A stretch of DNA of 64,000 nucleotides from Bacteroidales bacterium (GCA_015060835.1 SUXT01000001.1:5277-69276); one strand, 5' to 3'. Positions 33,518 through 59,183 are shown, counted from the stretch's first letter. Notes: a model not told the origin generated them from the sequence alone. A program made the numbers and translations.

Positions 33518-33544
33518 CTTTCTTTGTAGGTGATGAGATGTTGG

Positions 33545-34006
33545 CTAATAGTGTCTCTTTATTCTGTCCATTTCACGTTTGTCGTCGCGCTCTTTGATGC
33601 TCTCGCGCTTGTCATATTCGTGTTTACCGCGTGCGAGTGCAATCACGAGTTTGGCAAGACCTCTCTCGTTTATGAAGAGTCGGGTGGGGACTATTGTGAA
33701 TCCGGGGTTCTTTACGGCTTGTTGCAGTTTCCTTAGCTCCTTGCGCTCAAGCAACAGCTTTCTGTCGCGTCGGGCGGTGTGGTTGTTGTACGAACCGTAG
33801 AAATACTCGGCTACATACATATTCTTCACCCAAAGCTCGGTGCCGGTGAATATGCAGTATGTGTCGACAAGGCTGGCCTTGCCGAGTCTGATGGATTTTA
33901 TTTCGGTGCCGGTGAGGACTATTCCCGCAGTGTATGTGTCGGTTATTACGTAGTCGAACGTGGCACGCTTGTTCTTTATGTTGATGTTGTTTTTTCTCTT
34001 GTCCAT
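33545..34006 (-). CDS. smpB: SsrA-binding protein
   Basis: 153 aa. [14 protein letters not shown] and RKLLL are present. Confidence 0.9.
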
Positions 34007-34043
34007 CTTTTATGGCGGTGTTGTTTGTTGTGATACGAGAAGT

Positions 34044-34619
34044 TTAACTGAGCGTAAGTGTGAGGTAGTTTAGAATGCGGCTTGTTGCCACCGGCAACGC
34101 TATCAGTATTATGGTTACTGTTACAGCGTATGCGAACAGTTGCTCTTTTTCTATTCCCCATATTGCTACAGCACCGTCCTGTACAAATTTCAGCGTATAG
34201 AATTGCGCAATCAATGCCGGCAGACGGAATATGGGGAAGAGTCCGACGCAGATCTCCAATGCAAGTATAACAGTCATCGAGTAGCCTGTGAATATGGCGG
34301 CAGCCTCTTTGTCGACATTCTCATTTATCTGTCTCTCTGTGAGGAACTTTATTGCAACTGTAGCAAAGTAGTAGGCCGCCAGCAACGAAAATGAGTACAT
34401 CGCGGCATCGATAAGTGAATCGTAAATGGTGGCGAAGCTTATGCCGCCTCTTATCAGTCGGCCAAGCACGACAGCCGTGCCGCAGAGCATTGTCATCGGG
34501 TAAAGGAATTCCGACAACATACCTCCTAAGGTGGCATTATGCTTGATGCTGTTCCACCCCTCTGCGGGATGCAACAGCATCTGTATAGTAGTTTCGTATG
34601 CTCTCTTGCAGTGGTTCAT
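34044..34619 (-). CDS. Yip1-domain-like membrane protein
   Basis: 191 aa with about five TM segments. The family call is tentative. Confidence 0.5.
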   Translation of the reverse strand: MNHCKRAYETTIQMLLHPAEGWNSIKHNATLGGMLSEFLYPMTMLCGTAVVLGRLIRGGISFATIYDSLIDAAMYSFSLLAAYYFATVAIKFLTERQINENVDKEAAAIFTGYSMTVILALEICVGLFPIFRLPALIAQFYTLKFVQDGAVAIWGIEKEQLFAYAVTVTIILIALPVATSRILNYLTLTLS

Positions 34620-35450: not shown

Positions 35451-35677
35451 CAAACAAAAGAGCAAGAAACATGAAGTTTACTTCAATGTTTTTTACAGCG
35501 AGTGCAGTATATCTTCGTCAGGTTGACAAAGATAGTGAAAGGCGAGCGAAGAAAAAACAAGCTCGCTTGATTTTTTTTATTCCGAGCCGCATCCTATCTT
35601 CGTAAAATTGACAAAGATAGCAACAAACAAGCAAAAGTTCGTCAAGTGAGTGAATAAAAGTTGCTTTTATTTTTTTA
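35443..35677 (+). repeat. Tandem array of three roughly 85-bp palindromic repeat units at the left edge of the AT-rich island
   Basis: Units start with caaagata at 35443, 35527 and 35612. Each holds a central hairpin followed by a T-run (aacatgaagtttacttcaatgtttttt; gcgagcgaagaaaaaacaagctcgcttgatttttttt; ataaaagttgcttttattttttt). Units 1-2 end with tatcttcg. Confidence 0.75.
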
Positions 35678-35874: not shown

Positions 35875-35882
35875 TATATTTG
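35875..35882 (+). promoter_or_regulatory. Bacteroides-type -7 box upstream of the island operon
   Basis: tatatttg (TAnnTTTG) lies 39 nt upstream of the ATG at 35921. Confidence 0.45.
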
Positions 35883-35920: not shown

Positions 35921-38900
35921 ATGAAAATAAAAGGATGTTTTCCATTATTTAAGTCAAACATTATTGCGCGTATTCAAATATATGTGCTAATGATTTTTCT
36001 ATTCATTCCCAGCGCGGGCTTTTGTGTTGAAGATTATTATGATAGACACATAATAATAGCAGTTGACCAGAAAGCTATTCGTGACTATGGTGATTACTCA
36101 AAAGCTAGGGATTCGCTATTCGCTGCGATAAAAAGTTTTCTAAGGAATGATGGCAAAATATCAGGCATGAATAAAACCATGTCATATATTTCTCCGGGAG
36201 TATATTTTGACAAAGAAACAGATAAAGTTTCTTTGTTTGCATTTGGAATTCCTGGTACAGATCAATATTCATATGATGATAGTCCATACGCGCGACTTAA
36301 AAGAAGTTTGCGTTATGATTATTCTTTCAATAAAATATCAGACTCCTTAATAAAAAGTAGAGCTGTGTATACTAAGAGCGGTGATCTTGAAAAATTTTTG
36401 AATAGTTTAAAACTTGTTTTTTATAATGATGAAATCCATAAACAAAAAAAACAGTATGGAAATTGTATTCTGAGTTTATCGCATTATGTAGATCCGTTGA
36501 TTATAAATCATATAGATGCTTCTGTAAAAGCGCGCGAATACTATCTTTTTATTGTTACTGATTATACATCTGGTGGTGGAGCTAACGATACAGGAGATAT
36601 CCGTAGAATGGAAGAACTGCTTGGTATGAAAAAACCAAATAGTAAAAGAAACCTATCCGATTTTAATACTAATGTAAATAATTTAATTTCAAAATATAGT
36701 CGTACAGAGATACTTAAAATACTGCCGTCAGGTTTCGGAGAAAGAGACCAGGTTGATCAGATTCAAGATTTTCCTATTATTAAAGGTAAGAAATTGTTGC
36801 TTGCCGGCAGCGAATGTTCCACATTATTTGTTGCTTCTGATATTAGATTGAAGCAATTGGAACTTGATGAGCCTTTTTATAATCTTCAGCCATCAAAGAT
36901 AACATTTGCGCATAGTGGAGATATTGTTCTCGAAAAAATAATGTTCACTATAAAGGATAAAAAAGGGAAAGTGCTTTTGAATGAAATCTTTGATGATTCC
37001 GAACAGCTCAAAGCAATGTATAATAAGACTGATAAAGGATATGAAATACCTGCTGTAAATGAATTAAATATAAGTAATTTAGCTGTTGGAGATTCTCTCT
37101 TTTTTGATTATGTGTTTTACACTAAATCAAGTAATGAAAATGGAGCGAATACAGTGCTTCCATATGTGTTTGTGGCAAATAAAGAATATTTAGTAACTGA
37201 TGATGTTTTTGTTCCCCGACCGCAAATGTCTAATTCGGATTTAGCGATGATATTTTTATCTATTTTGATTATCTTGTCAGTGGGTACAATACTATTGTAT
37301 TGGCTTTATAAAAAACGTGGACAGAACAGAGTCGTGAATCTTGATTTTAAAATCTGGCCTATAACTAACGAACGTTTCATGGAAGTTAAGAATAAACAGG
37401 TTTTAAAGTACGACTGTTGGTATTGGGATGGTCAAAGAAGAGACCATAATATTCGTGTAACAGGAAATTTAAATATTGAGGAAAAATCTTGGGCTAAAAA
37501 ATTCAAGTATATTGTAGAATTTTGGATTGAGGATATAGATGCGAATGCCGATTTTTCATTCCGTCCCAGTCTTCAAAAAAGAGAAGCAAATGGAAATGTA
37601 CGTGATTCCCGTCAATGGTACCCGGTACAGGAAGATTCTGACGGAACCGGTAATTTCAGTTGTGATGCGAATGTGTTTATAAGTGATGGCGAGAAACCTT
37701 CTCTTACAAAAGTACCTAATTTTAGTTTCGATAATATTTTGGAATTGAAGGTGAAGGTTAGAGTGAAAATGGTTGACAATGACGGCAAATTCATTAAATT
37801 TGTGAAAATTTCAAACAGTGACACAGATTGCATTGAAAAAGTTTATTCATTCATTGTTAAGCCGAAACTTGAAAATAGCAATGTTTGGATGGCATTTGAC
37901 CCGGGAACAACAGGATCATGTGCTGCATTCGGTGTATCAGCTCTTCCCACCGATTCAGATGATATTTTCTTGGCAATAAATAGGCATGAAAGTGAATCTG
38001 GTGATATCATCAATGATCCCTTGTTCCCCTCAAGGATAAGGATAAACAACAAATCCAAGCGTCTTTTTGCCAATACTCCCGCTCCTGCTGAACAGCTTAT
38101 CGAGGGAGAGGATTTTGATTTTGGAAATAAGGCCGAGATTTTTTGGAAAGCAAAGTCGAGCAACTGTTTCCAATCCATTAAAAAACTATTGGGTTATACA
38201 AACCTTCAAAAAATAGTAGATTCTCAAGGTCGTATTTCGGAAATTTCAGGACAAGATTTGGCGCATTTGTTGGTGAAAGGTTTGTATAAACACACTAAAG
38301 AATATATCGAATCAAATGCAAATAACTTCCAGAATATTTCTTCAATGTTTATGAAGAATGGTTCTTTCCATCCGCAACGTGCTATTGTAGCTGTGCCTAA
38401 CAATTATACACTTGTGAAAATACAAGAAATGGTTGATAGTGTCAAGAGAATTGGCGCATTCAATGAAGTGCACTACATTTATGAGTCAGAGTCCGTAATG
38501 ATGACTTATATAAGGAGCAATTGGAAACTTTTATTTGAACAAAGAGATGAACAGCAAGAGAAAGTCTATATAGTCTTTGATATGGGTGGTGCAACAATAA
38601 ATGCCACTGCTTTCAAATTGAATGTTTATCCTGATATTGTCAGAGGCAAGGCTAATGATATCAGCAGTATTGATGTAGAGACAATATCAAAAATTGGTTA
38701 CGGTGTCGGAGGTGATGATATTGACTACGCAATCATACAATTGATCTACGGAATTCCAACAATAAAAGCCCTTATTGCTGATGTAGAGAAGCATCAACGT
38801 GAACATAAAACAGCGCTTATAGAGTTGGCCCGCAAGATAAAACTGAGTTGGATAAGTTCTTATAATGGCAGTAGAAAGGCCGGTGGCATAACAAATAATA

Positions 38901-39859
38901 TTCATGACTTTTGGACAGAATTAGGTAATACATTTAAATACTCGTTTAAATTAAGTATTCCAATGTATACCGAAGAGGATGCTGCTTACTTAAATAAAGA
39001 AAGTGAAAAACATACTTTAATGAAGAAGTATGTACTTGATTCCGTAAAAAATGCTGTAATGAACTTATTGTCCACAATAGAGAATAAGTCAGATATTGTA
39101 TTGATAATGAGTGGTCGCAGTGTGTTGTATCCCGGTATAAACGGAGCTGTTGATGCAGCGTTGACATCTGCAGGCTGTGAAAAGATTGATAAGTGGAAAG
39201 GGTACTGTGATAAAAATGGAGTATTCGATTCGGAAAAGGTAAAATCTGCTGTAGCTATAGGAGCATGTTGGTATGCAATGTATAGCGACAGAATAAATAT
39301 GATTAACAATATAGTAACCACATCTTTTGGCTATATTGATTATGTTGAAGGTGAACAGAAATTTATTCCAATCGTGGAACGAAATAGCAGATATGACGCT
39401 AATGGCGAGTGTTCTGGCTTTGTTCAAACCATGGGTAGTACTCTTAGAACAGTGCGACTTGTTCAAATGCTAGGAATGAATTACGATGAAATATATTCTA
39501 CTCCCATCAAACACATGATGAATGTGCTTGATGAAGTACTTCCTCAACAGATTAACACATATGTCAACAAAGTAGAGATAACTGTTGATAATAAAAACAA
39601 CTTCTCATACACGATTTATGACGGTGTCAATGAAATAACAAAAATGAATAATCCTCATTCGCGTCTTGGCGACAACGATGTTAAGACTGAGATTGTAGAT
39701 GAAAACAGTTCAGCCTATGTTTATGCAACGCTTAACGAAAATGACTTGAATGTAAATAAGAATCAAGAGACTACATCGTCCGATGTCGAAACAACTCATG
39801 CAAATGAAGGTGCAACTAAAACAATAATACTTGAGAAAAATACAACAAAACGGTTCTAA
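35921..39859 (+). CDS. Giant bitopic membrane protein: exported N-terminal region (vWA-like fold without MIDAS?) - TM - cytoplasmic beta-rich region - Hsp70/actin-fold ATPase domain
   Basis: 1312 aa. N-terminal hydrophobic segment IQIYVLMIFLFIPSAGF. Internal TM LAMIFLSILIILSVGTILLYWLY followed by KKRGQNR. Hsp70 NBD motifs appear in order: MAFDPGTTGSCAAFG, AIVAVPNNYT..EMVDSVKRIGA, VYIVFDMGGATINATAF, GVGGDDIDYA, IVLIMSGRSVLYPG, AVAIGACWYA. Confidence 0.8.
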   Translation: MKIKGCFPLFKSNIIARIQIYVLMIFLFIPSAGFCVEDYYDRHIIIAVDQKAIRDYGDYSKARDSLFAAIKSFLRNDGKISGMNKTMSYISPGVYFDKETDKVSLFAFGIPGTDQYSYDDSPYARLKRSLRYDYSFNKISDSLIKSRAVYTKSGDLEKFLNSLKLVFYNDEIHKQKKQYGNCILSLSHYVDPLIINHIDASVKAREYYLFIVTDYTSGGGANDTGDIRRMEELLGMKKPNSKRNLSDFNTNVNNLISKYSRTEILKILPSGFGERDQVDQIQDFPIIKGKKLLLAGSECSTLFVASDIRLKQLELDEPFYNLQPSKITFAHSGDIVLEKIMFTIKDKKGKVLLNEIFDDSEQLKAMYNKTDKGYEIPAVNELNISNLAVGDSLFFDYVFYTKSSNENGANTVLPYVFVANKEYLVTDDVFVPRPQMSNSDLAMIFLSILIILSVGTILLYWLYKKRGQNRVVNLDFKIWPITNERFMEVKNKQVLKYDCWYWDGQRRDHNIRVTGNLNIEEKSWAKKFKYIVEFWIEDIDANADFSFRPSLQKREANGNVRDSRQWYPVQEDSDGTGNFSCDANVFISDGEKPSLTKVPNFSFDNILELKVKVRVKMVDNDGKFIKFVKISNSDTDCIEKVYSFIVKPKLENSNVWMAFDPGTTGSCAAFGVSALPTDSDDIFLAINRHESESGDIINDPLFPSRIRINNKSKRLFANTPAPAEQLIEGEDFDFGNKAEIFWKAKSSNCFQSIKKLLGYTNLQKIVDSQGRISEISGQDLAHLLVKGLYKHTKEYIESNANNFQNISSMFMKNGSFHPQRAIVAVPNNYTLVKIQEMVDSVKRIGAFNEVHYIYESESVMMTYIRSNWKLLFEQRDEQQEKVYIVFDMGGATINATAFKLNVYPDIVRGKANDISSIDVETISKIGYGVGGDDIDYAIIQLIYGIPTIKALIADVEKHQREHKTALIELARKIKLSWISSYNGSRKAGGITNNIHDFWTELGNTFKYSFKLSIPMYTEEDAAYLNKESEKHTLMKKYVLDSVKNAVMNLLSTIENKSDIVLIMSGRSVLYPGINGAVDAALTSAGCEKIDKWKGYCDKNGVFDSEKVKSAVAIGACWYAMYSDRINMINNIVTTSFGYIDYVEGEQKFIPIVERNSRYDANGECSGFVQTMGSTLRTVRLVQMLGMNYDEIYSTPIKHMMNVLDEVLPQQINTYVNKVEITVDNKNNFSYTIYDGVNEITKMNNPHSRLGDNDVKTEIVDENSSAYVYATLNENDLNVNKNQETTSSDVETTHANEGATKTIILEKNTTKRF

Positions 39860-39880
39860 ATTTATAAATTGAAGATTATT

Positions 39881-41968
39881 ATGAAAAGAGCAACTTTATA
39901 CTTTATTCTTATTATCTGTACCACATTTTGTTTTATATGTACAGCAAATGGTCGAAATGAGAATATTGAATTCAACCAAGAAGGTTGTAAATTAGAAAAT
40001 AATGGTGTACAATATTTTAAAATTAATGAAAATAGAGTCGTTTTTACCGGTGACGCTCTATATTTGAATGCTACAAAGAATGATAATATAACAATTAATA
40101 CGAATGATCCTAAAATAAAACCCATTCTTTCAGGCAATAAATATTATCGTGAGATAAATACAAATAATAAATTTGATATAGTAGTACTAAAAAAATACAA
40201 CAAACTAACTATTTACAACAAGAAGAAGAATAATAACGATACTATAAACTTAATTACTTTTGAAGCTTATGACGACACTTTACATCTAAAAGAAATAATT
40301 GAAACAGCGCAAATAAAATCTGACTTTCGTAAAGGTGGCTCTAAATCAAGAAGAGGTGCCGGCGACGATACAACTGATCAAAATGATACAATAATTCATC
40401 AGAATGATACAATAACTTTGGATTTATCATTAGGTAATCAATATTGGTCATTCGATGGAAGACTTATGTTGGGAACCGATACTATTGAAAATATTGTATT
40501 GAATAAAGATAAAAAAGATAATAAGATCAAGTTGCCGTTGAACACTTCTTTGCGTGACTCTCAAGAACTTTTCATCACAGGAAAACTTAAATATGGGGAA
40601 TTTGAACTTGATGCGAAGATTTTTAGTAAGAGATTGAGCGTCAAAGAGCCAATTGCCCTCTCTTTTTGGGGTAAAGCAAAAGAATGGTTCGTAGCTAAGC
40701 CTCTTTGGGTTGTAATTTTGTTAGGTGTCGCTGCGTTATTGTTGTTGGCCTTAATTGTATTCATAATCATTCTTGCTACAAAAAAATGCAGAAAGAAAGA
40801 GAATAATGATGACGGCAATTCGGATAATGGTAATAAAGGAACATCAAAAGATAATGGTAATAAAGGAACATCAAAGGATAATGGTAAAGCTCCTTTAAAT
40901 AAGGGAAAAAATAACGTTTCACCAAAACAGGAATCAGGAAAAGAAAAAAATGAAGCACCCACTTCCAATGAAGACGTTAAGTCTCCTCAGATAGCCGACA
41001 AGCTAAATGGAATAAGTGATAAACTTGTAGAAATAGAAAAGAAACTCAAAGAATCTACAAAATTCAACGATATTGAGAAAAGACTCAATGATATTGAGAC
41101 AAAGCTCAAAGACGACAGTAAATTCAAAAATATAGAAACAAGAATCAAGAGTATAGATGAAAAATTAGATGCGCCTAAAAAACTAAAAGAAACAGAAGCT
41201 GCTTTAGAAAAAACCAAAAAAGATTTGGAGAGTTCTAATAAAAAGAATACGGAACTTAGTTCAGATTTGTCAGTAGCTAAAGAAAACATTAGAACATTAG
41301 AAAAGGCTCAGGAGGTGTTTTCGTCCAGAATAACATATGTGCCTTTTGCTGAAGAGTATTGCAAGAAAATACAAAAACTGATTAGTGTTGCCGATCAAAT
41401 ATCTAAAGAGGCGAATGCATTGTATAGCTCTTCATCAATAGATGATCCTTGGCACATAATGAAGGCTATAACCAAATATAGTGTGGCTATATGTGGTATT
41501 GACATAGAGCAATTCTACACCGAAGTTAGAATGATAGGTAGCGGGCAGGTTGTTCTAAACGGTACGATGTTGTGCCAATATAATAAAGGAACCGATGAGA
41601 ATGAACTTAAAAATTCGACTAAGAACTATTTTTTCAGCACCTACCTAAGCCGATATATAGATGCTTTGGTCGTTTTCAATGAAACACTTATCGGTATGGA
41701 TAGATTGGTAAACGGTATTTCAAAAAGCGATGTTGCAAAATTCGTGCAATTCCGAGATAGAATTAACGAAATATTGTCCTCTATAGAAATAACTGTCAAT
41801 TCAGTGAAGTTGTTCGAGCCGGTAGGCCAAAAATTATATTTGCAGGCCGAATCAGGTTCTTATGGCAACTTTGAATCAGGTACAATCGTAGAAGTAGAGA
41901 ATTGTGTTGTATACCTGACAGGGTCTACAGCTCCATCTACCAAAATTAGAGTAAAAGTTCAAGAATGA
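39881..41968 (+). CDS. Bitopic membrane protein: exported N-domain - TM - low-complexity linker - coiled coil with tandem repeats - C-terminal globular domain
   Basis: The ATG at 39881 (MKRATLYFILIICTTFCFICTANG) is preferred over the TTG at 39869. TM LWVVILLGVAALLLLALIVFIIILAT followed by KKCRKKE. NGNKGTSKD occurs twice. It has repeated KFNDIEKRLNDIETKLKD-type heptad units. Confidence 0.75.
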   Translation: MKRATLYFILIICTTFCFICTANGRNENIEFNQEGCKLENNGVQYFKINENRVVFTGDALYLNATKNDNITINTNDPKIKPILSGNKYYREINTNNKFDIVVLKKYNKLTIYNKKKNNNDTINLITFEAYDDTLHLKEIIETAQIKSDFRKGGSKSRRGAGDDTTDQNDTIIHQNDTITLDLSLGNQYWSFDGRLMLGTDTIENIVLNKDKKDNKIKLPLNTSLRDSQELFITGKLKYGEFELDAKIFSKRLSVKEPIALSFWGKAKEWFVAKPLWVVILLGVAALLLLALIVFIIILATKKCRKKENNDDGNSDNGNKGTSKDNGNKGTSKDNGKAPLNKGKNNVSPKQESGKEKNEAPTSNEDVKSPQIADKLNGISDKLVEIEKKLKESTKFNDIEKRLNDIETKLKDDSKFKNIETRIKSIDEKLDAPKKLKETEAALEKTKKDLESSNKKNTELSSDLSVAKENIRTLEKAQEVFSSRITYVPFAEEYCKKIQKLISVADQISKEANALYSSSSIDDPWHIMKAITKYSVAICGIDIEQFYTEVRMIGSGQVVLNGTMLCQYNKGTDENELKNSTKNYFFSTYLSRYIDALVVFNETLIGMDRLVNGISKSDVAKFVQFRDRINEILSSIEITVNSVKLFEPVGQKLYLQAESGSYGNFESGTIVEVENCVVYLTGSTAPSTKIRVKVQE
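40823..40888 (+). repeat. 27-bp tandem repeat, 2.4 copies, in frame
   Basis: gataatggtaataaaggaacatcaaaa / gataatggtaataaaggaacatcaaag / gataatggtaaa. Confidence 0.85.
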
Positions 41969-41990: not shown

Positions 41991-43346
41991 ATGAGTATTA
42001 AAAAATTAATATTGATTTCAATCGGTGTTGTAATTTTAGCAAGTGTGGTAATTAGTATTATTACTCCTGAACCAAAATACAGCAACAACTTTAAGGCATC
42101 TTATCCCGAAGTGTTAAAGTTACAGACTTCAAACATTCCCGGAGCAGAGACTTCTGATGTGCCCCAAGTAGACGTTATTGTTGATTTCTCGGGAAGCATG
42201 AGGGGATTTATCGATTACAGTGGAGTGAACAATGGCGCTGTAGACAATAGTAATTTTATAAGTACCGTTTCGGACTTTCTTACAGAATACGAATCCAATT
42301 TTAAAGCCAAGAGTATAGTTTACTGTGGCACTAAGAAGTACGGAAAGGACGAATTCAGAGAGGGAATGCGCAACAAAGGGATTTTTCATGGCGGAACTAC
42401 TGAACTTGACAAACTTATAGAAAAAACGGTTTCGATGGCAAGTGACACTTCTGTCAGTGTGTTATTGTCAGATATGGTACTCTCTTATGGCCCTAACGTA
42501 ATTAGAACTTCAAAGAATCCCAGGTACAATAAAGATGCTCTTGATGGCCTCTCATCTGCAGTTAAAAGTTGTATTACAAAAGCAAAGGATAAGGGGCTCG
42601 ACATAATGTTAGTGCAGTATTTGTGCGATTTCAGTGGACAATACTATTACAATTATTTGGAGAACCTTCCCAATAACCGAAGCGACTACAATGGTGCTTT
42701 AATGAAAAACAGACCATACTATTTTATGCTAATCGGTAAAAAGAGGCACCTTGTAAATTTGTACGATAAGTGTGTGAAGAAAGCCGAGTATGTATACACT
42801 TCATTTGATGTAGCAGAAAATCCCAATGACAAAAAAGCGTTTTCTATAGCTGAAAAGAAAAACAAAAACGGCGTGAATTATTGGGAGCAAGGAACTGAAG
42901 AAACAGAATCTCCCGGAACATTCGTAACGAAACTTGATTTGGAGGGCGAGAAGAATGCTTTTGCAGTAAGATATGATAATTTTATCCTGCCTACATTTAT
43001 AAATGGTTGTGATATTGTGGTAAATACAGACTTTGGTCATATAGAAGATATGGTCTATGATGCAAATTCAAAGACTTTAACATATACCTACTGTTTACCT
43101 AATTTTGAAAAACTTAAAAATGCAGACAATATTGCATCTATTGATGTCATGTATAATAGTTCTGCAAATAAGTGTGATGCAATATCTCTTGACGACGATG
43201 TAAACATGGAACTTGCTAAACTGGAGGGAAAAACATGGTCGGTCAGCGCAGTGGTAAGCGCTATCGATGGAGCTTATTATGGCAAGAGAGGACGCGAGGC
43301 TTGTATAACAGTATCAAGAACAAAATTAATATTCAAGAAAATCTAA
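41991..43346 (+). CDS. N-terminally membrane-anchored von Willebrand factor A (vWA) domain protein with an intact MIDAS motif
   Basis: 451 aa. TM LILISIGVVILASVVISIITP. VDVIVDFSGSM is a DxSxS MIDAS motif, and VSVLLSDM is the later strand typical of vWA. The C-terminal roughly 200 aa is unassigned. Confidence 0.7.
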   Translation: MSIKKLILISIGVVILASVVISIITPEPKYSNNFKASYPEVLKLQTSNIPGAETSDVPQVDVIVDFSGSMRGFIDYSGVNNGAVDNSNFISTVSDFLTEYESNFKAKSIVYCGTKKYGKDEFREGMRNKGIFHGGTTELDKLIEKTVSMASDTSVSVLLSDMVLSYGPNVIRTSKNPRYNKDALDGLSSAVKSCITKAKDKGLDIMLVQYLCDFSGQYYYNYLENLPNNRSDYNGALMKNRPYYFMLIGKKRHLVNLYDKCVKKAEYVYTSFDVAENPNDKKAFSIAEKKNKNGVNYWEQGTEETESPGTFVTKLDLEGEKNAFAVRYDNFILPTFINGCDIVVNTDFGHIEDMVYDANSKTLTYTYCLPNFEKLKNADNIASIDVMYNSSANKCDAISLDDDVNMELAKLEGKTWSVSAVVSAIDGAYYGKRGREACITVSRTKLIFKKI

Positions 43347-43362
43347 AAAATATTTTTATATT

Positions 43363-43794
43363 ATGGAAACAATAAGACGATTTGCAGAATTTTTCTATGG
43401 GTTTTGTGTAGACATGAAACTTAAGTTATTTACACCTGCTCCTCAAGGTGATGATGGTTTAGCATGGTTGTTGATATTTTTACTTGGCTCCTCGGCGCTA
43501 TTTGCTGCAATTTATTATTTTGGGGTAGAAAGAGATGCAAGAAACGCAACACCTAAAAATTATTTGTCATTATATATCGCAGGTTATTTGACATTGGTCG
43601 CTGTTAATTTTGTGGGGCTTGCTTCGATAGCCAAGGATGGCGAACTCCCTTTAGTGGATATATTTTATGTATCATTGATTGATATCATTTATTATTCCAT
43701 TTTGTTTGAAATCCACTCATTATGGATGAAGGGATTATCAAAGAATTCCAAGTGTATAGATATTATATCAATATTGTTTAACAAGAATATATAA
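43363..43794 (+). CDS. Small polytopic membrane protein
   Basis: 143 aa with three to four hydrophobic segments. It is tightly packed in the operon, with 16-nt and 4-nt gaps. Confidence 0.65.
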   Translation: METIRRFAEFFYGFCVDMKLKLFTPAPQGDDGLAWLLIFLLGSSALFAAIYYFGVERDARNATPKNYLSLYIAGYLTLVAVNFVGLASIAKDGELPLVDIFYVSLIDIIYYSILFEIHSLWMKGLSKNSKCIDIISILFNKNI

Positions 43795-43798
43795 TCTG

Positions 43799-45388
43799 AT
43801 GAATATGATGAATAATTTATATGTATTTGCAATAGGTGGTAGTGGAGAGCGCGTAGTTAAATCTTTGGTTATGATGCTCACTACCGGAATGAAAATAGGA
43901 GCACAACGTATAAAACCGGTGTTTATTGACAACGATGTTGATTCTAAGGCGTTTAAAACATGTTGCGAACTTATAACGTATTATAATGCTACACCACAGT
44001 CGGATCACAAGATGGGTGCCAATACATTGTACCTTCAGGAGGACCAGGATTCTGCAACTTGGGGCAGTTTTTTCCATGTTCCAATAGACAAGCCTATTGT
44101 GCTCAATAAGGCAGGGGAGGCTATTGGCAATCTTCGAAATGTTATAGGGTATACCAGAGGAGAAACAGCTGCTCATAAATCAATTGAAGAGGAAATGAAT
44201 CTACTTTTCACTGATGACGATTTGAATATGCCGTTGAGTGTCGGTTTTGTTGGTAATCCCAATATAGGAAGTATAGTCTTGAATTCTCTTTCGTTGGATG
44301 GTGATGGTAGTACAGATTTTGGAAAAATTTTGGCTAATATCTCGGCTAATGATGGAGCTATAGTTATAGGTTCTCTTTTTGGTGGCACAGGAGCTGCCGG
44401 GCTTCCGTTGGTAATAAATAAATTAAAATCGTTGCCTCCGGCTAAAAAACCTATATTGGGTGGCATTGCTGTATTACCTTATTTTAATACAGATCAGCAA
44501 GGCGATAAGCATCCCGATCTTGATACAAAAAAATGGGATGTAAAATCCGGTTCCTTTGTCGCAAAAACTCGTGCCGCCTTGATGTACTATGATGATTATA
44601 TGAAGTATGATTATGACTGTTTATATTATGTCGGCAATAGTCAGGAACTGGATACATTCCATCATTGTGTCGGTGGTGAAAAACAGGATAATCCTTACCA
44701 TATCGTAGAAATGATGTCTGCACTCTCTGTTATTGATTTTTCTATGGCTACACATTTGGATAAAATAGAATATAAGTCTCCTATCTGGGGATTTACAGAC
44801 CAAAATAATTCGAATGTTTCAGGAATCTATAATTCTGATTTGGCAAAGTCTTTAGTTAAATTCAGAATGTTGAAAGAGATGTTCTATTCGTCGGGTGAGT
44901 CATTTTTGAAGTGGGCGATAGATATAAGGAAAGATTACTGTGATAGAACTGGGTTCAATGAGCCTTTCCGACTTTCGGTTTGCGGACAAAGCAGTGCAAA
45001 TTCACAAGCGTGGGGAATTGCCAATTTGTTTAGAGAATTTGATAAGTGGATGAGTGAACTCTCTTCTGATAGAGTAAGCAGACCATTTTTGCTTTTCAAT
45101 AGTTCGGCACAAAATGTAAACGGCGATAACATTACTAAAGAATTCTATTCTGAGCGTAAAGAGGACGAGGTAAATTTTGGTATTGCAAAATCTGAATTAA
45201 AAGGTTTTTTCAAGAAAACTCTTGCTGCTGTAAAAGCTGATATCGCAAATGAAATGCAGAATGCCTATAATCAACTTTACCCAGGAGGAATAAAACAAGC
45301 AGATACTGCGAAAACATTGTCTATTTTGTTGAAAATAATATCAAAGGCATTGGATAATGTGTTGGAAAAGAATTGTATAGAATTATAA
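43799..45388 (+). CDS. Divergent FtsZ/tubulin-superfamily GTPase-like protein
   Basis: 529 aa. LYVFAIGGSGERVVKSLVMM compares with FtsZ IGVGGGG.NAV. AIVIGSLFGGTGAAGLPLVINKL compares with the FtsZ/tubulin signature GGGTG(T/S)G. ILGGIAVLPYF compares with FtsZ VGVVTKPF. The three motifs occur in the correct order and spacing. Confidence 0.7.
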   Translation: MNMMNNLYVFAIGGSGERVVKSLVMMLTTGMKIGAQRIKPVFIDNDVDSKAFKTCCELITYYNATPQSDHKMGANTLYLQEDQDSATWGSFFHVPIDKPIVLNKAGEAIGNLRNVIGYTRGETAAHKSIEEEMNLLFTDDDLNMPLSVGFVGNPNIGSIVLNSLSLDGDGSTDFGKILANISANDGAIVIGSLFGGTGAAGLPLVINKLKSLPPAKKPILGGIAVLPYFNTDQQGDKHPDLDTKKWDVKSGSFVAKTRAALMYYDDYMKYDYDCLYYVGNSQELDTFHHCVGGEKQDNPYHIVEMMSALSVIDFSMATHLDKIEYKSPIWGFTDQNNSNVSGIYNSDLAKSLVKFRMLKEMFYSSGESFLKWAIDIRKDYCDRTGFNEPFRLSVCGQSSANSQAWGIANLFREFDKWMSELSSDRVSRPFLLFNSSAQNVNGDNITKEFYSERKEDEVNFGIAKSELKGFFKKTLAAVKADIANEMQNAYNQLYPGGIKQADTAKTLSILLKIISKALDNVLEKNCIEL

Positions 45389-45404: not shown

Positions 45405-48400
45405 ATGAATAAATTTGAATTTGGAATGAAAGCCGTACAACAAGATGGTTTAAACGGCGATTTTAAAATATACGATAGCAATTTGGGTGGCAATTATAAC
45501 CCCTATAATTCAACCTATTTCGATAGAGAGGAAAACAGAGTAGTTTGTCCAGATAATGGAAGGATAACATCTATACCTTCACCTTATGCTCGTATGCATA
45601 TAACAGACCTTGCATTTAGGGAAGCAAACAGTGGTAGTGCAAATGGTGAGCCGCCCATAGCTCTGTCTCTTGATTATAATATAGCATTGTCCCATTGTCT
45701 GGATATTTTCGAGATGTTGTTTTATTCAGATGCAGAAGACTTGGAAGAAAAGGGTGTTTCGGTAGAAAAGATAGATCTTGTAAGAACCAATACTACAAAT
45801 GTAGAGGAAAAGGCATTATTGAATGCTAACCCTAAACTTAAAGCGTATATTTCAACGTTGGATTTATATCGCGATGAATATGTGAGCGTTTTGGATCACA
45901 TCAGAAATGACAAACATGTAAATCAATATTTGTTTGATTTTAATTCGTTGTATCTGTTTAAATATAAAGGAAAGGTTTTTGCGTCAACATCGCCGCTTAC
46001 CGGATTCTTTGCTACAGCCAATTGTAACATAGGGGATCTGGTGATTAACGGTAACAATATTCTTAGCTCAAATCCTAATCATATAAGAGAAATTGGACAG
46101 CGCACATCAGAATTCCGTGAATTCATGTACTCTTTGTTGTTTCATACAGGTTTGTGTCATATATTTAAGAATTTGTTTATATATGTAAAGAATAGCTTGG
46201 ACGCAAATCAAATAGCAACCATAGACCAGAACCCGTTCCAAAATCAAAGGCAATACCTTAAGTTTAACATTGGCGGGCAACATTTGCTTCAAGTTAAAGA
46301 TAATCTGTATATCAGACCGGGCGGAATAGATTGTTCATATTTGAAATATTATCTTTATCTTGCCCCTCCTGTTGATTTTGCAATAACGGAACAGGATTAT
46401 GCTACAAAATTAAATGAACGCCAATTTAACGGTCAGTTGGTTTCGTGGTATGGTGTAAATGATATTTTGTCAGATGCGCTATTTGTTTTGACGTATGATA
46501 TAAATGACAATTATGTATCGGTGCCATACGTAGATATAAATAAAGATTGTAAGGCATACAAACGTTGTCTTTTACCAATAAAACGAGGAGCTCTTGACTT
46601 CTTTACAGTAGACGAGTTGTGTAACGGTTTGAGAATAGAGAAAAGGGATCATAGTAAATATGTAGCAACCCTTAAAATAACTTTGTTGAATGGTGGAACT
46701 ATAACATTGCGTCGTGAGTACACAGCCGGTGATGCTTGCTATCCTAATGGCAAGGTATTCCAAGGTGATGATATGAAGCCTTTTGCATTCGGTATTTATC
46801 CGTTTGTGAAGTCTACTCAATTTGCCAATATGTACAAAGTGTTATTCTATAATCATTTTGATAAATATTCACTTAAATTTTATAAAAAGGATGCAAATGG
46901 TATAAATCCATTGCTTGAAACAGAAACGAAAGTAAATAAGACTAATAACATCCATAACCAAGAATTTGGTGTCAATTGCGAGTATCACGACATCAATATA
47001 CAAACGAATATCCTTGAGTTTGCCGAAATTGAAGTTTCAGGATTAACATCGCTTATTATTCCCAATCTGCGCATGGTCGGGGAAGCCAATGATGGCGCAA
47101 GTATTGCAGTTGATCATAATACAGAAGTTACTGTGGCTATAGACTTGGGTACATCCAATACTTACGTTGCATATAGTCGCAGGCCTTTCGGTGGCGGTAC
47201 CATAGCTGAAAAAGATATTATTCCCATTTCGACGCATCATAGCGGTAATGTCGAATGGAATGAACTTACATTCATGAATAAAAAGTGTGAACAAGCAGAT
47301 TTGGCAACAGCACCGGAAAAGAATAGGGAAGATTTGTATTTGCGGGTAAGTGATTTCGATAATAAGCCCGTAGATACATGGCTATCTTCTCAGTTGAACG
47401 AATTTATTCCTTCACGCATTGATCCAAACGGTGATAATTATAGTTTCCCAATTCCGACTGTTATAAATTTCTTGCGCAGGAATTGTGGTCGCCCTCAATT
47501 CGATCCTAATGCCCAAGAATCTCCGTTGATAGATTTTGCTATACCTTTTGCATATTATGAGAGAGGTATAAGAACCGGAGGAAGTGGTGCGAATGTATAT
47601 GATTTGATAAGCAATGGAAGCGACTTTAAATGGTATGAAAAGCGCAATAATAAGGGTACTCTCGTTAAAAATGAAGTATTCGAGGCGGCTTTCAAGGCTT
47701 TCTTGTCTGAATTGATGTTCATCGTCCGTTGTCACTTGATTTGCAGTGGGCATGATTTGACGCTATGCAAAATAATCTGGTCGTATCCGTTATCATTCTC
47801 GAGTTCATTGCGTGATGAATACGATAGAGCGTGGAAAGAGGCATACAAAAAATATATTAACCCAACAGTCGCCAATAATATTGATGATTATGTTAAGTAT
47901 ACAAATGAATCCCGTTCTCCTATCTATGCGTGTATAAATAATCCGGGAGCTATAAACCATTTGACAGTTTTGTTGGATATTGGTGGTGGCTCAACCGATG
48001 TAATAGGATACAAAAATAATAATGTCCAATTCGTTACTTCATTCGGTTTTGCCGGCAACGCCTTGTATTTGGCATCAGGTATGAATACAGTCTCAGAAGG
48101 AGATCAAATGGACGGTACATTACTAAAGAGGTTTGTTATAAAACAGAGAATTTTCAGTGGTATAGGTTCCAACCCCAATTCTGCCGAAATGGAGGAGAAA
48201 AAAATCAGTACTTCTGATTCTATATGCACTCTTATGAATTATGGTTTCGCTAAGGCAGAATATGATTTTGTGAAGATTTTTCAAAATGATTCAGCGCAAT
48301 TTATGTTGCAACTGCATAATGCAGCCATAATATATCATGTGGCTCAGTTGTGCAAAATTTATTCTCCTGATGAACTTCCTGATACAATATATCTGACCGG

Positions 48401-48938
48401 TAATGGCTCTAAACAATTTGAACTTAATATAGCCAAGGATTCTATGATAAGAAACATCTTCGCTGCTGTTTATGAAGATAGAACAATAAATGAAATTGAC
48501 AAAATAAATATATGCAGCAATCCTAAACCTAAGGCAGCAACTGTAAATGGTGCATTGTTGGGCTTGAGTCAAGGTACATTGGCTACAAACAGGGAGTCTG
48601 CTACTAATAGAGTGGTAATGCTTGGTGATTGCGCCCACTCTTATAGAGTTGACCCGATTGTTGATTATGCCGTTGTTGATAATAAAGACGGTTACAAGGA
48701 AGCTGTTAAGGAAAATGTCAATAAGTTCTTTGAATACTTCTATGATAAGGTATATACAACAGCAAGTCCTGTAAGAACTATAGAACATGTGAAGGAGGCT
48801 ATTGACTATGTATCTGGCGATCCGAAATTGAATCTACCTGATAATGGTATTATTTCAGATTCGTTCTTCTTCCAATACATAGCTTTGGTTATGCAGAAAT
48901 TGTCAATGGACTTGGTTAAAGCAGGTTATGCCAAGTAA
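45405..48938 (+). CDS. Large soluble protein: unassigned roughly 560-aa N-region plus C-terminal Hsp70/actin-fold ATPase domain
   Basis: 1177 aa. VTVAIDLGTSNTYVAY (phosphate-1), IIWSYPLSF, LTVLLDIGGGSTDVIGY (phosphate-2), TIYLTGNGSKQF and ATVNGALLG (adenosine region) are present. I saw no TM segment. Confidence 0.75.
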   Translation: MNKFEFGMKAVQQDGLNGDFKIYDSNLGGNYNPYNSTYFDREENRVVCPDNGRITSIPSPYARMHITDLAFREANSGSANGEPPIALSLDYNIALSHCLDIFEMLFYSDAEDLEEKGVSVEKIDLVRTNTTNVEEKALLNANPKLKAYISTLDLYRDEYVSVLDHIRNDKHVNQYLFDFNSLYLFKYKGKVFASTSPLTGFFATANCNIGDLVINGNNILSSNPNHIREIGQRTSEFREFMYSLLFHTGLCHIFKNLFIYVKNSLDANQIATIDQNPFQNQRQYLKFNIGGQHLLQVKDNLYIRPGGIDCSYLKYYLYLAPPVDFAITEQDYATKLNERQFNGQLVSWYGVNDILSDALFVLTYDINDNYVSVPYVDINKDCKAYKRCLLPIKRGALDFFTVDELCNGLRIEKRDHSKYVATLKITLLNGGTITLRREYTAGDACYPNGKVFQGDDMKPFAFGIYPFVKSTQFANMYKVLFYNHFDKYSLKFYKKDANGINPLLETETKVNKTNNIHNQEFGVNCEYHDINIQTNILEFAEIEVSGLTSLIIPNLRMVGEANDGASIAVDHNTEVTVAIDLGTSNTYVAYSRRPFGGGTIAEKDIIPISTHHSGNVEWNELTFMNKKCEQADLATAPEKNREDLYLRVSDFDNKPVDTWLSSQLNEFIPSRIDPNGDNYSFPIPTVINFLRRNCGRPQFDPNAQESPLIDFAIPFAYYERGIRTGGSGANVYDLISNGSDFKWYEKRNNKGTLVKNEVFEAAFKAFLSELMFIVRCHLICSGHDLTLCKIIWSYPLSFSSSLRDEYDRAWKEAYKKYINPTVANNIDDYVKYTNESRSPIYACINNPGAINHLTVLLDIGGGSTDVIGYKNNNVQFVTSFGFAGNALYLASGMNTVSEGDQMDGTLLKRFVIKQRIFSGIGSNPNSAEMEEKKISTSDSICTLMNYGFAKAEYDFVKIFQNDSAQFMLQLHNAAIIYHVAQLCKIYSPDELPDTIYLTGNGSKQFELNIAKDSMIRNIFAAVYEDRTINEIDKINICSNPKPKAATVNGALLGLSQGTLATNRESATNRVVMLGDCAHSYRVDPIVDYAVVDNKDGYKEAVKENVNKFFEYFYDKVYTTASPVRTIEHVKEAIDYVSGDPKLNLPDNGIISDSFFFQYIALVMQKLSMDLVKAGYAK

Positions 48939-49001: not shown

Positions 49002-49628
49002 ATGGGAATGTTTATTAATGAGAATGAAACTGCAGAAAAGCAATTTAGAGATATTGATAAAACTCTGAATGGCTTGTTTGATAGAATTGATTCGGTTGAG
49101 GAGAAACTTGAAACTTTAAAGCTTGTGTTGGGCAAACTGTCTGACAGTTTGCAAGAGATGTCGTTATCTATAAAAACGGCATTAAATCAAGCGTGTGATG
49201 TAAATGAGAGTATAGAGACATCATGCACAATTCCTGCTTCTGAAGAAAAAGAGCCAATACACGAATGTGCCCCTGAAGAGAAAGTCGGTGCAGACGTAAA
49301 AGTCGAAAGTGAGTTTGAAATACGCTTTTTGGGTGCACCTTCGGGTAGTGGTTTTGAAGTGATGAACGAAAGAACCGAAAAAAGTATTTCTACCTTATAT
49401 ATACTTGAAATTGACAGAGCCAATAAGATAGCATATTTCTATCCTAATAAAGAAAATATTGCCAAACTTGTATATGATAAGCCGCATAATCTTGAACCCG
49501 TATGCGACATTGAAGGGGTGGTTGATTCTTTGTGTGACTTGTATATAAGTAAAGATGATTATGGTGTTTTGCATCTTGAAGCTCCGGATTATTGGAAAGT
49601 TCAAAAAAAATGTCTTATTAAATGTTAG
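49002..49628 (+). CDS. Hypothetical protein, N-terminal coiled coil
   Basis: 208 aa. It has a heptad-like N-terminus (LFDRIDSVEEKLETLKLVLGKL), an acidic linker and a small C-terminal domain. Confidence 0.6.
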   Translation: MGMFINENETAEKQFRDIDKTLNGLFDRIDSVEEKLETLKLVLGKLSDSLQEMSLSIKTALNQACDVNESIETSCTIPASEEKEPIHECAPEEKVGADVKVESEFEIRFLGAPSGSGFEVMNERTEKSISTLYILEIDRANKIAYFYPNKENIAKLVYDKPHNLEPVCDIEGVVDSLCDLYISKDDYGVLHLEAPDYWKVQKKCLIKC

Positions 49629-49632
49629 TTGA

Positions 49633-50712
49633 ATGAAGAAAATATTAATTTACATTTGTGTTCTTATTTTGGTGGTAGTTATGATCTGGCCGGAGCAGAA
49701 TCTGAAAATAGCTTCTGTAGTGGATGGTAATACCGTAGAATTGAATAATGGAACAACTGTGCATCTTATAGGTGTTAATAGTACTAACGAAGGTAAAATC
49801 GAACTGGAGGGATTGATGGGAAAAAGTTTGTTGTTGGTTCCCGATAAAACTGCATTCTTTAATCCCGATCTTATTGACAAAACCTCTACGGTATATGCTT
49901 ACGCTGTTGTTGAAGATGACAATGTGTGCATAAACGCATCGTTACTCAAAAATCGCTATTCTAATCTCGAAGAGAACTCATATTTGAATGATAGTCTGAA
50001 TTCATTCAGAAAATATGCCGAGTCAGGGCGAAGAGCTTTGACACCTGAGCCTACCCCAACTCCTAAACCAGTCATAGATTATCAGGAGGAGGAGATATAT
50101 CTCGATCCGTATATACCATCTTCTGAACGCAAGCATAGTGCATGGTATAATGATGGAAGTATGAATTTGGAGATGCTTGAGGAGGCTTGTGACTTTAATT
50201 TGCCATATACAAAAAAATTTGCAAATGAACTTGCTGCACGTTCACCTGGTAGCTTCAATCCAGGACAGATATGTGAAATTTTTGCATATTGCTATAAGAA
50301 ATGGAGTTATGTCAACGATCCCGCAGATGTTGAATATGTCGCTCGTGCATCAGAAACAATTCATGGTTCATTAATTGGTGATTGCGACGATTACGCAGTT
50401 TTGATGGCGTCATGTATACTTGCAGTTGGAGGTCGCGCTTGTATAAACACTGGTTATAATTCCAGTGGTGGACATGCTTTTACCGAGGTTGATATATCCA
50501 ATTTTGATGAAAATGAAGTCTATAGTGTTATATGTAAATATTTCCCTGAGTATAATATACAAAATCTGAATTACAGAATAGACGGACAACACAAGTGGTT
50601 GAATCTGGATTGGCAAACTCAATATCCCGGAGGTAAATATTATGATTGTTCTTATAAGTGGGACAGTTATCCTTATGAAAAAGGCAAGTGGGTTTGGAAA
50701 AAATTGAGATAA
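49633..50712 (+). CDS. Membrane-anchored/exported protein: SNase-like OB-fold (catalytic residues apparently not conserved) plus transglutaminase-like cysteine protease domain
   Basis: 359 aa. N-terminal hydrophobic segment ILIYICVLILVVVMIW. VVDGNTVELNNGTTVHLIGVNS resembles the thermonuclease DGDT...RL.GIDAPE strand pattern without the Arg/Asp/Glu. GDCDDYAVLMASCILAVGGRA ... GGHAFTEVD fits the transglutaminase-core Cys/His arrangement. Confidence 0.6.
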   Translation: MKKILIYICVLILVVVMIWPEQNLKIASVVDGNTVELNNGTTVHLIGVNSTNEGKIELEGLMGKSLLLVPDKTAFFNPDLIDKTSTVYAYAVVEDDNVCINASLLKNRYSNLEENSYLNDSLNSFRKYAESGRRALTPEPTPTPKPVIDYQEEEIYLDPYIPSSERKHSAWYNDGSMNLEMLEEACDFNLPYTKKFANELAARSPGSFNPGQICEIFAYCYKKWSYVNDPADVEYVARASETIHGSLIGDCDDYAVLMASCILAVGGRACINTGYNSSGGHAFTEVDISNFDENEVYSVICKYFPEYNIQNLNYRIDGQHKWLNLDWQTQYPGGKYYDCSYKWDSYPYEKGKWVWKKLR

Positions 50713-50794
50713 TAAGAAACTGTTTGAATTTTCTTGAAAGAAAACTATATTTGCGATGTTCATTTCGGCTTATTTAACGGAGTTTTTCTCCTTC

Positions 50795-50834
50795 AAACCT
50801 CAGCCATACAAGTTTGCTTGTATGGCTGAGGTTT
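50795..50834 (+). terminator. Terminator-like hairpin closing the island operon
   Basis: aaacctcagccatacaag-tttg-cttgtatggctgaggttt, a perfect stem of about 18 bp, lies 83 nt after the stop at 50712. Confidence 0.65.
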
Positions 50835-51022
50835 GGCGTCGATTGAGTCTATTTAATGTCATTAAAGTTGCTTTTACTCGTTTTGCAATTTGTGAAAAAG
50901 TTCACATTGCGCTCGCTTAATCACAGCTTTTGGCATCTTTTCTTTCTTATTTTTTGGAAATAGCCCGCTATTCCCTGCAAAATGTGAAAGAAAATCTACT
51001 CAAAATAGCTCTCAAATAATTC

Positions 51023-51095: not shown

Positions 51096-51228
51096 GAAAA
51101 TAAAATTCAAACAGCTTCTTATAATCAAGGATGACACGTAATAAGAAATGTTAAAATCATTATTGCGGGGTTACTAATTTTACAAATCATACATAAATAC
51201 ATAAATTGTTAAACCAAATTAATGTACT

Positions 51229-52266: not shown

Positions 52267-52268
52267 TT

Positions 52269-54975: not shown

Positions 54976-55353
54976 ATGTTTTTTTGTTTTTTTAAAGGCT
55001 TTTATGCCATGATGTTTGCTTTGTTTGTAATATCATGTGGCAATGCTGTAGATTCGGCAAATGAGAAGTCGGCATCGAAAACAAATGCAAAGACAACAGA
55101 TGCTTCCCAAAGCATCATAGTGAACAATGCTTCAAGTGGAAATTTATCTACCCAGTCACTAAGTAATAGTGCGAGCGGTAATGCTTCTCGTCAGTTTGTC
55201 AAGACAAAAAACAGATGTAGCAAATGTTCTTGTTCGGGTTATTGGGGATACAAACACTTGAATGGTACATACGAGGGTAATTGTTCAAACACTGACAAGT
55301 ACGGACACAAATGCGGACATGGACCAGAAAAACATGGCTTGAAAAAATGGTAG
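54976..55353 (+). CDS. Small lipoprotein with a Cys/His-rich C-terminus
   Basis: 125 aa. Lipobox FVISCGNA. It has a Ser/Asn/Ala-rich linker and the C-terminal cluster CSKCSCSGYWGYKHLNGTYEGNCSNTDKYGHKCGHGPEKHG. Confidence 0.55.
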   Translation: MFFCFFKGFYAMMFALFVISCGNAVDSANEKSASKTNAKTTDASQSIIVNNASSGNLSTQSLSNSASGNASRQFVKTKNRCSKCSCSGYWGYKHLNGTYEGNCSNTDKYGHKCGHGPEKHGLKKW

Positions 55354-55380
55354 AATTATATTGAGACTTATAACTAAATA

Positions 55381-55413
55381 TTGTAAGGCATCCTGTTGTG
55401 GGATGCCTTACAA
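55381..55413 (+). terminator. Terminator-like hairpin at the right edge of the AT-rich island
   Basis: ttgtaaggcatcc-tgttgtg-ggatgccttacaa, a perfect 13-bp stem, lies 28 nt after the stop at 55353. Confidence 0.6.
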
Positions 55414-59174: not shown

Positions 59175-59183
59175 GTTTGGGAT

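Follow-up and report, generated by a model that had tools for sequence, protein, structure and literature searches.

A probable membrane-spanning member of the Hsp70 superfamily heads tubulin-like and vWA-like operons in Bacteroidota

Hsp70s are normally soluble chaperones, and the locus described here raises the question of whether an Hsp70-type ATPase can instead be fixed in the inner membrane and carry a large exported domain on the same polypeptide. The gene concerned, g1 (35921..39859, plus strand), lies in a 64,000-nucleotide stretch of DNA from a Bacteroidales bacterium (GCA_015060835.1 SUXT01000001.1:5277-69276), which is referred to below as the window. Our analysis indicates that the single-pass membrane protein encoded by g1 probably belongs to the Hsp70 superfamily, as a real but highly diverged member that is bitopic in the inner membrane. 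The g1 family was recovered here from Bacteroidota alone, and it almost always heads an operon with tubulin-like and vWA-like genes.

The open reading frame (ORF) is genuine, encoding 1312 aa with full-length homologues at 49-54% identity, and the identical protein is recorded as MBE6267402.1, "hypothetical protein [Bacteroidales bacterium]". An artefact, whether gene fusion, mis-assembly or decaying pseudogene, would be suggested only by the unusual length of g1 and its lack of a Pfam match. The identical protein is however present on 17 contigs, the same domain order recurs in full-length homologues from ~90 clusters, and both the catalytic residues and the operon synteny described below are conserved. 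The chance of an artefact is thus vanishingly small, and this explanation is effectively refuted by the conservation data. Conservation across g1 is highest in the nucleotide-binding domain (NBD); the exported ectodomain is less conserved, though not hypervariable.

Direct searches with g1 were near-empty, and profiles were therefore needed. There was no Pfam match at E <= 0.1, no PADLOC match and an empty phmmer search against the PDB, with NCBIfam returning a weak HscA match alone (E 3.6e-4, aa 731-976). A 90-member family profile searched against the PDB matched solely Hsp70s (BiP, DnaK, mortalin, Hsc70 and Ssb; best E 6.9e-8), and hhalign of the g1 family against a DnaK/HscA/HscC profile gave a probability of 98.9% (E 1.4e-17) over 465 columns spanning the NBD, the linker and the beta-sandwich of the substrate-binding domain (SBD-beta). 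An AlphaFold 2 (AF2) model of aa 466-1312, of moderate quality (predicted local distance difference test, pLDDT, 61.8; predicted template modeling score, pTM, 0.60; 6-sequence alignment), was matched by Foldseek to DnaK (4b9q) with an E-value of 4.5e-19 over ~640 columns. The original prediction, made from the nucleotide sequence alone, had assigned an Hsp70 fold to the C-terminal part, and profile searches, profile-profile alignment and structural comparison all return that fold. Furthermore, eight distant members of the g1 family match Pfam HSP70 (PF00012), five of the eight tested lying above its threshold (P0060, for instance, scores 35.2 bits, the cut-off being 20.6), with g1 of the window itself below it.

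The NBD (aa ~655-1122; 37883..39286) contains the motifs that had been quoted for it, in the claimed order: DPGTTGS (660-666), VPNNYT (825-830), FDMGGATINA (886-895), GGDDID (930-935), SGRSVLYPG (1064-1072) and AIGA (1112-1115). Sixteen positions are invariant in the 90 sequences (D660, G662, T663, K754, P826, N827, E855, D887, G889, G890, G930, G931, D932, D935, G1065 and R1066), and T892 is nearly so (90% or more of the sequences). The catalytic set D660, K754, E855, D887 and T892 aligns to DnaK D8, K70, E171, D194 and T199, respectively, and G889 and G890 align to DnaK G196 and G197. Because these catalytic residues are kept and aligned to those of DnaK, the ATPase of g1 is predicted to be active.

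A second question is what follows the NBD. The original prediction had recognized neither a substrate-binding domain nor a lid and had argued from this that an NBD-only ATPase would be a purely transmembrane signaling or mechanical switch, rather than a chaperone-type clamp. This reading is favored by the missing lid, by the lack of a J or GrpE partner and by the fact that the SBD-beta-like segment is not significant when aligned alone; in addition, Kaur et al. (PMC7159879) noted HSP70s without a peptide-binding domain in related systems. Against it, the hhalign alignment passes the end of the NBD and continues collinearly through the linker (INMINNIVTTSFGY vs VLLLDVTPLSLGI) to DnaK ~510-515, so that the region collinear with DnaK ~385-515 corresponds to the whole SBD-beta. 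The AF2 model places a sandwich of nine strands immediately after the NBD, the best Foldseek matches are full-length DnaK chains (~600 residues, aligned over ~620-675 columns) and not NBD-only entries, and the segment is conserved, with 0.59 identity among close homologues. Since the NBD alignment extends collinearly and the Foldseek coverage agrees, we assign the linker and an SBD-beta-like sandwich to aa ~1123-1261 (39287..39703), an assignment which is well supported rather than proven. With such a clamp-like domain following the NBD, the argument that g1 is an NBD only and hence not a chaperone fails, and we regard the NBD-only alternative as improbable; g1 might nonetheless be a signaling or mechanical device. 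The part of the claim that stands is the absence of the alpha-helical lid (SBD-alpha): the sandwich is followed by a short conserved motif, EIVDENSxAYxYA, and then by a basic, disordered tail of ~40 aa, low in complexity and with KRF as its last residues (39704..39856), as seen in the homologue alignment and the AF2 model.

The tail itself (aa 1273-1312; 39737-39856) ends in K/R-R-F. Among ~130 members of the g1 family 21 end in RF, others end in RI, RL or HF, and in the distant clade the protein ends directly after DANDEHYTW. By analogy with EEVD, the K/R-R-F ending could be a C-terminal docking motif.

The placement of g1 in the membrane is supported by several lines of sequence evidence. 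A Kyte-Doolittle scan found exactly two hydrophobic segments, aa 18-36, preceded by an n-region rich in lysine and arginine (K/R), and aa 441-459, followed by YWLYKKRGQNR. The first is the core of a signal sequence (aa 1-36; 35921..36028), and the second belongs to a transmembrane (TM) helix at aa 441-463 (37241..37309), also present in the AF2 model, which leads into KKRGQNR. Across 79 long-form homologues the mean number of K+R per 15 residues was 3.63 after the TM helix vs 1.32 before it, the count being higher after the helix in 68 of the 79 (Wilcoxon p = 7e-11), and an N-terminal hydrophobic peak was found in 72. Close homologues carry typical signal peptides which begin MKK and end A-Q. 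Short forms of the family (~750-830 aa) have their TM helix at residues 1-25 with positive charges after it, followed by the juxtamembrane-NBD module. Taken together, hydropathy, the positive-inside statistics, the signal peptides and the short forms put the NBD on the cytoplasmic side of the membrane, with aa ~37-440 exported, and thus support an N-out topology with one TM helix and a cytoplasmic C-terminus, as had been proposed. Between the TM helix and the NBD lies a cytoplasmic, beta-rich juxtamembrane domain (aa ~470-650; 37328..37870; AF2 secondary structure, pLDDT 50-79), which is family-specific, occurs also in short and soluble forms and is without match to any known family.

The exported part is composed of two domains. 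The second is an immunoglobulin (Ig)-like beta-sandwich (aa ~303-435; 36827..37225; AF2 pLDDT ~80-89), from which came the only Foldseek matches of the exported part, all to generic Ig-like domains (GH2 Ig-like, CopC and adhesin repeats). In the AF2 model of aa 36-470 (pLDDT 57.2) confidence is limited to this sandwich and the TM helix, and the alpha/beta region that precedes it (aa ~37-300; 36029..36820) was modeled with pLDDT < 50. The strands of this exported part quoted in the original prediction are present (HIIIAVDQ, 43-50; VSLFAFG, 103-109; YYLFIVTDYTSGG, 207-219). The alpha/beta domain gave no PDB match by profile, and no Pfam match was obtained for 30 members. In the window protein the metal ion-dependent adhesion site (MIDAS) position reads VDQKA, the threonine of GxT is lost and TDY stands for the SDF/TDG motif. 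Distant homologues, in contrast, show RRHIIVAVDGSGS, GxTLS and hhhhSDFxxGS arranged in the order, and roughly at the spacing, of the vWA MIDAS (DxSxS...T...D), with DGSGS, DNSGS or DCSGS at the MIDAS site and GxT and SDF in register. Furthermore, the domain aligns with exported "V" proteins of related operons (VFVLVDVSGS; probability 85%, E 6e-6, 144 columns), to which it is homologous. A reasonable reading is that the alpha/beta domain is vWA-like, with a MIDAS which is degenerate in the clade of the window and intact in distant relatives. The proposal of a Rossmann/vWA-like fold without DxSxS is thus upheld as regards the missing motif in this clade; vWA membership, indicated by motifs and weak hhalign matches only, is tentative, because PDB and Pfam gave no match and Foldseek returned Ig-like domains only.

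Compared with canonical Hsp70s (DnaK, HscA, HscC and BiP), g1 shares the actin-like NBD with its phosphate-1, phosphate-2 and adenosine motifs, followed in the same order by a hydrophobic linker and an SBD-beta(-like) sandwich. It differs from them in ~650 extra N-terminal residues (signal sequence, alpha/beta domain, Ig-like domain, TM helix and juxtamembrane beta domain), in lacking the helical lid and a nearby J-domain or GrpE gene, and in being missed by Pfam HSP70 and by phmmer against the PDB.

In order to define the family, a 6-sequence profile of aa 1-1170 was scanned with full HMMER against 1.84 billion representatives, which yielded 237 clusters at E <= 1e-3, of which 158 passed E <= 1e-30. 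Word-indexed homologue searches, even with a profile, had found 7 proteins, making the full HMMER family ~30 times larger. The thousands of canonical DnaK clusters were not recovered by the profile scan, indicating that the g1 family is separate and deeply diverged. It occurs as long forms and as short N-anchored forms. The architecture had been called unusual, which holds relative to canonical Hsp70s; within this Bacteroidota family of ~240 clusters it is the norm. A survey of one genome per GTDB species (185,579 species representatives) identified 52 g1 loci, all 52 in Bacteroidota and spanning Bacteroidales, Flavobacteriales, Cytophagales, Sphingobacteriales, Chitinophagales and Saprospiraceae. 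No relatives were found in phage records, plasmids or IMG/VR viral contigs, and a phage or plasmid origin is not supported.

What does g1 work with? In the window it opens an operon of eight closely packed genes (g1-g8, all on the plus strand), with gaps of 4-63 nt between them. The second gene, g2 (39869..41968; 699 aa), encodes a signal peptide, a periplasmic domain, a TM helix, a cytoplasmic coiled coil and a C-terminal domain. It is followed by g3 (41991..43346; 451 aa), which has an N-terminal anchor and a vWA-like domain containing DFSGS (E 8e-4 by hhalign against the ViaA MIDAS strand; no Pfam VWA match), and by g4 (43363..43794; 143 aa), with three TM helices. The g5 product (43799..45388; 529 aa) is a diverged tubulin/FtsZ-like GTPase containing AIGGSGERV and FGGTGAAG (Pfam Tubulin E 0.006), which aligns with the Tubulin_2 proteins of related operons (hhalign probability 88.6%, E 2.7e-6). 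A second, soluble ATPase of the actin/Hsp70 fold is encoded by g6 (45405..48938; 1177 aa), with weak FtsA and Ppx matches, an hhalign match to DnaK 135-213 (E 7e-4) and the segment VAIDLGTSNTYVAY; g1 and g6 show no paralogy by BLASTP. The operon is completed by the coiled-coil protein g7 (49002..49628; 208 aa) and by g8 (49633..50712; 359 aa), a membrane-anchored or exported, transglutaminase-like protein (Pfam Transglut_core E 3.6e-5); g2, g4 and g8 are membrane proteins. After g8 comes a 516-nt gap with a perfect hairpin of 19-nt arms (50794..50835), ~80 nt past the g8 stop codon, which is likely the operon end. At the other end, the sequence TAtaTTTG (35875..35882), 38 nt upstream of the g1 start codon, fits the -7 consensus of Bacteroides promoters.

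Some features of these genes and their surroundings were recorded in addition. The 455-nt intergenic region upstream of g1 holds a 41-nt imperfect direct repeat (35510-35550 / 35595-35635; 76% identity, 85-nt spacing, core TATCTTCGT..TTGACAAAGATAG), the two copies of which may be regulator-binding sites. A 27-nt tandem duplication in g2 (40823-40876) repeats the peptide DNGNKGTSK in a low-complexity cytoplasmic segment just after the TM helix. The ~570-aa N-terminal region of g6 has no assigned fold. A 28-nt inverted repeat (50708-50735 / 51099-51126; 89% complementary) flanks 363 nt between g8 and the next ORF and could be a small mobile or regulatory element. The g2 product was also considered as a GrpE-like or J-like co-chaperone, but Pfam and PDB searches gave coiled-coil matches only and the candidate was rejected for lack of evidence.

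Operon types were derived from iterated hidden Markov models (hmmsearch-based iteration). Six metagenomic loci in which g1 is 49-54% identical carry these eight genes in identical order, and this arrangement, g1-g8, constitutes the type A operon of Bacteroidales, to which g6 is confined. In type B the order is g1, g2, M, V, S, T, Z, where M is a TM protein of ~400 aa, V an exported protein of ~390 aa with DxSGS, S a TM protein of ~130 aa, T a protein of ~810-1015 aa matching Pfam Tubulin_2 (E 4e-40 to 4e-47) and Z a trypsin-like protein of ~250 aa. Among the 38 loci with at least 9 kb of downstream sequence, the tubulin-like gene was present in 37, the vWA-like gene in 36 and g2 in 34. Two type B examples, both RefSeq "Hsp70 family protein" entries, are WP_169673012.1 (Flavivirga algicola, 1217 aa), a long form, and WP_193425557.1 (Pedobacter sp., 744 aa), a short form. 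Each is encoded by the first gene of a Tubulin_2 operon and is only ~20-25% identical to g1 of the window, with the long form keeping a DxSGx MIDAS-like motif. One locus (L013, a Bacteroidaceae metagenome-assembled genome, MAG, from goat caecum) has a second Tubulin_2-like ORF of 967 aa, on the minus strand upstream of a type A g1, which suggests that one genome may carry more than one tubulin-like system.

Two kinds of described system resemble these operons. Makarova & Koonin (2010; PMC2875224) defined membrane-associated operons containing FtsZl1 and vWA proteins, and two of the FtsZl1-vWA neighborhoods in their supplementary table have entries for a DnaK-like protein of 1626 aa (amb2961) and for a GrpE-like protein. 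Those operons combine a diverged tubulin/FtsZ-like GTPase (FtsZl1, or Tubulin_2), vWA proteins with a signal peptide or TM helix, and many lineage-specific membrane proteins, a make-up that the g1 operons seem to share. They differ in that the g1 and g2 families of Bacteroidota were undescribed there, the sole Bacteroides example having other neighbors, and in the OmpA, protein kinase and GTPase genes that the window operon lacks. The conflict systems of Kaur, Burroughs, Iyer & Aravind (2020; PMC7159879) join tubulin, HSP70 and extracellular vWA around DO-GTPase/GAP1, and resemble the g1 operons in bringing NTPases (tubulin and HSP70) together with membrane-bound extracellular vWA proteins and peptidases. 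Unlike the g1 operons, these DO-GTPase/GAP1-N2 systems, with tubulin or with HSP70 and GrpE, belong to Firmicutes and Actinobacteria and have a separate, soluble HSP70; their TRAFAC DO-GTPase, GAP1 and FNIII components are absent from g1-g8, where Pfam, NCBIfam and PADLOC showed neither a P-loop GTPase nor any other matching family.

With these partners in view, g1 would pass through an ordinary Hsp70 cycle while held at the membrane, ATP binding and hydrolysis opening and closing the SBD-beta clamp. It probably acts on cytoplasmic segments of its operon partners, with the g2 tail, the tubulin-like polymer and g6 as the candidate clients, and the ectodomain may dock to the periplasmic vWA-like and peptidase partners, so that one polypeptide would couple events on both sides of the membrane. 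Several observations weigh against this reading of g1 and its operon. Both AF2 models are moderate at best, each being built on a 6-sequence alignment, and the SBD-beta segment aligned alone is not significant (hhalign E 0.11), though the correct DnaK region was aligned. The vWA assignment of the ectodomain is at the level of motifs only, with hhalign to known vWA domains covering the MIDAS strand only (18-26 columns; ViaA E 0.003, YfbK E 0.08). Within the operon, g5 is weakly tubulin-like and below the Tubulin_2 threshold, and no J-domain or GrpE-like domain was detected in g2-g8 (Pfam and PDB), for which reason a canonical Hsp70 cycle is not guaranteed. Finally, PADLOC-DB 2.0 gave no match for g1 and only weak coiled-coil noise for g2-g8, and when PADLOC was applied to 121 upstream flanking proteins from 22 loci as a defense-island test, known defense genes appeared in 3 of the 22 flanks only, which is not clearly above background.

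The surroundings of the operon bear on what the whole system does. In the window g1 stands at the 5' margin of a low-GC island of ~20 kb (GC 0.33-0.37 vs 0.45-0.50 in the flanks), and neither a tRNA nor convincing att-like direct repeats border this island. In one metagenomic locus (L001) a phage-type integrase lies directly upstream of the operon, and the other five have unrelated flanks. Low GC, integrase adjacency, patchy spread (52 loci across many Bacteroidota orders), the peptidase-like gene that ends both operon types, and the caspase and TPR-CHAT genes downstream in the window point to an accessory module, and these features fit a conflict or stress system. We tentatively favor an accessory system for conflict or stress that is NTP-dependent and has moved horizontally. 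As an anti-phage or conflict system containing vWA proteins, the operon might use its periplasmic vWA-like and Ig-like domains to sense an invader or envelope damage, its Hsp70-like and tubulin-like NTPases might set a threshold or build an assembly, and the peptidases (g8, the trypsin-like Z and the neighboring exported caspases) might serve as effectors or processors. The systems of Kaur et al. lend this reading a parallel, and a CRISPR-Cas9 locus, an AbiE pair and PDC-S02 flank the three loci with known defense genes. It is countered by the PADLOC results given above, by the lack of DO-GTPase and GAP1 in the operon, by the lack of a nuclease or toxin effector and by the absence of relatives on phage, plasmid and viral contigs.

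Further observations were made in the flanks. In a Flavobacterium MAG (L024 3658-9518) the operon adjoins a type II CRISPR-Cas locus (Cas9 and Cas1 matches by PADLOC), and in Dyadobacter diqingensis (L061 529-2642) upstream ORFs resemble, by eye only, a Dcm-type cytosine methylase and a Vsr-type endonuclease. Downstream of the operon in the window, three caspase-domain (Peptidase_C14) proteins with N-terminal signal sequences are encoded at 52263-53033, 53037-54929 and 57635-58513, the second also with a BACON domain; two of the three lie inside the low-GC island. The third is followed (58515-62856) by an ORF like extracytoplasmic function (ECF) sigma factors, an ORF with a TM helix that resembles anti-sigma factors, and a TPR-CHAT protein of 1080 aa (CHAT E 4e-44), and together with these it is a separate caspase/CHAT module beside the island. 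A perfect hairpin with 21-nt arms (55373-55421), after the ORF 54976-55353 and where GC climbs from ~0.35 to ~0.46, is likely the terminator at the right edge of the island. Its left boundary is marked by normal-GC housekeeping sequence (30737-34619) encoding a 926-aa MetH-like and a 153-aa SmpB-like ORF (both by eye only) and a Yip1-domain protein (Pfam E 4e-7).

A different function, membrane or envelope remodeling, was proposed for the FtsZl1-vWA operons (PMC2875224). Applied here, a tubulin-like polymer would form at the inner membrane, and g1 and g2 would anchor and remodel it and link it to the periplasm. Type B operons with bona fide Tubulin_2 genes and the membrane anchoring of most components are consistent with such a cytoskeletal machine. 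The uncoating of clathrin by Hsc70 is a precedent for an Hsp70 clamp which dismantles a polymer. A rare, patchy and horizontally moved system is however not typical of core cell biology, this reading does not account for the obligatory peptidase genes, and no experimental work on FtsZl1/Tubulin_2-vWA systems was found in the literature. We hold remodeling to be possible but unlikely, and give a role other than conflict, stress or remodeling a similarly low chance.

Integrins suggest a further comparison, as they have extracellular vWA-type and Ig-like domains, a single TM helix and, on the cytoplasmic side, a connection to cytoskeletal NTPases. The resemblance to g1 is one of possible working only and not of membership, with no homology beyond the putative vWA fold; unlike in integrins, the MIDAS is lost in the window protein and the cytoplasmic part is itself an ATPase. 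By this analogy the operon could be an envelope-spanning "outside-in" device in which capture of a ligand or partner by the vWA-like/Ig-like ectodomain gates the Hsp70 clamp through the TM helix, the clamp controls whether a tubulin-like (and actin-fold) polymer assembles or disassembles at the inner membrane, and the peptidase is the output. We think this improbable; if true, it would be a previously undescribed way for a bacterial Hsp70 to act as a transmembrane signal transducer.

The gene for the probable membrane-spanning Hsp70, g1, is the standard lead gene of a tubulin-like/vWA-like operon of Bacteroidota and no isolated curiosity, and distant members already bear the automatic RefSeq name "Hsp70 family protein", with no study of them found. 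In the g1 family, an Hsp70 that is probably fixed in the inner membrane, often with an exported ectodomain of a ligand-binding type, is genetically tied to a tubulin-like GTPase, vWA-like proteins and a peptidase. This defines what is probably a Bacteroidota version of the FtsZl1/Tubulin_2-vWA operons predicted in 2010, now with a recognizable ATPase. Since this ATPase is recognizable and cultured hosts exist (Flavivirga algicola, Pedobacter sp. MR2016-19 and Dyadobacter diqingensis), the function of the operon is directly testable, and its study would show how an Hsp70 cycle can couple across a membrane.

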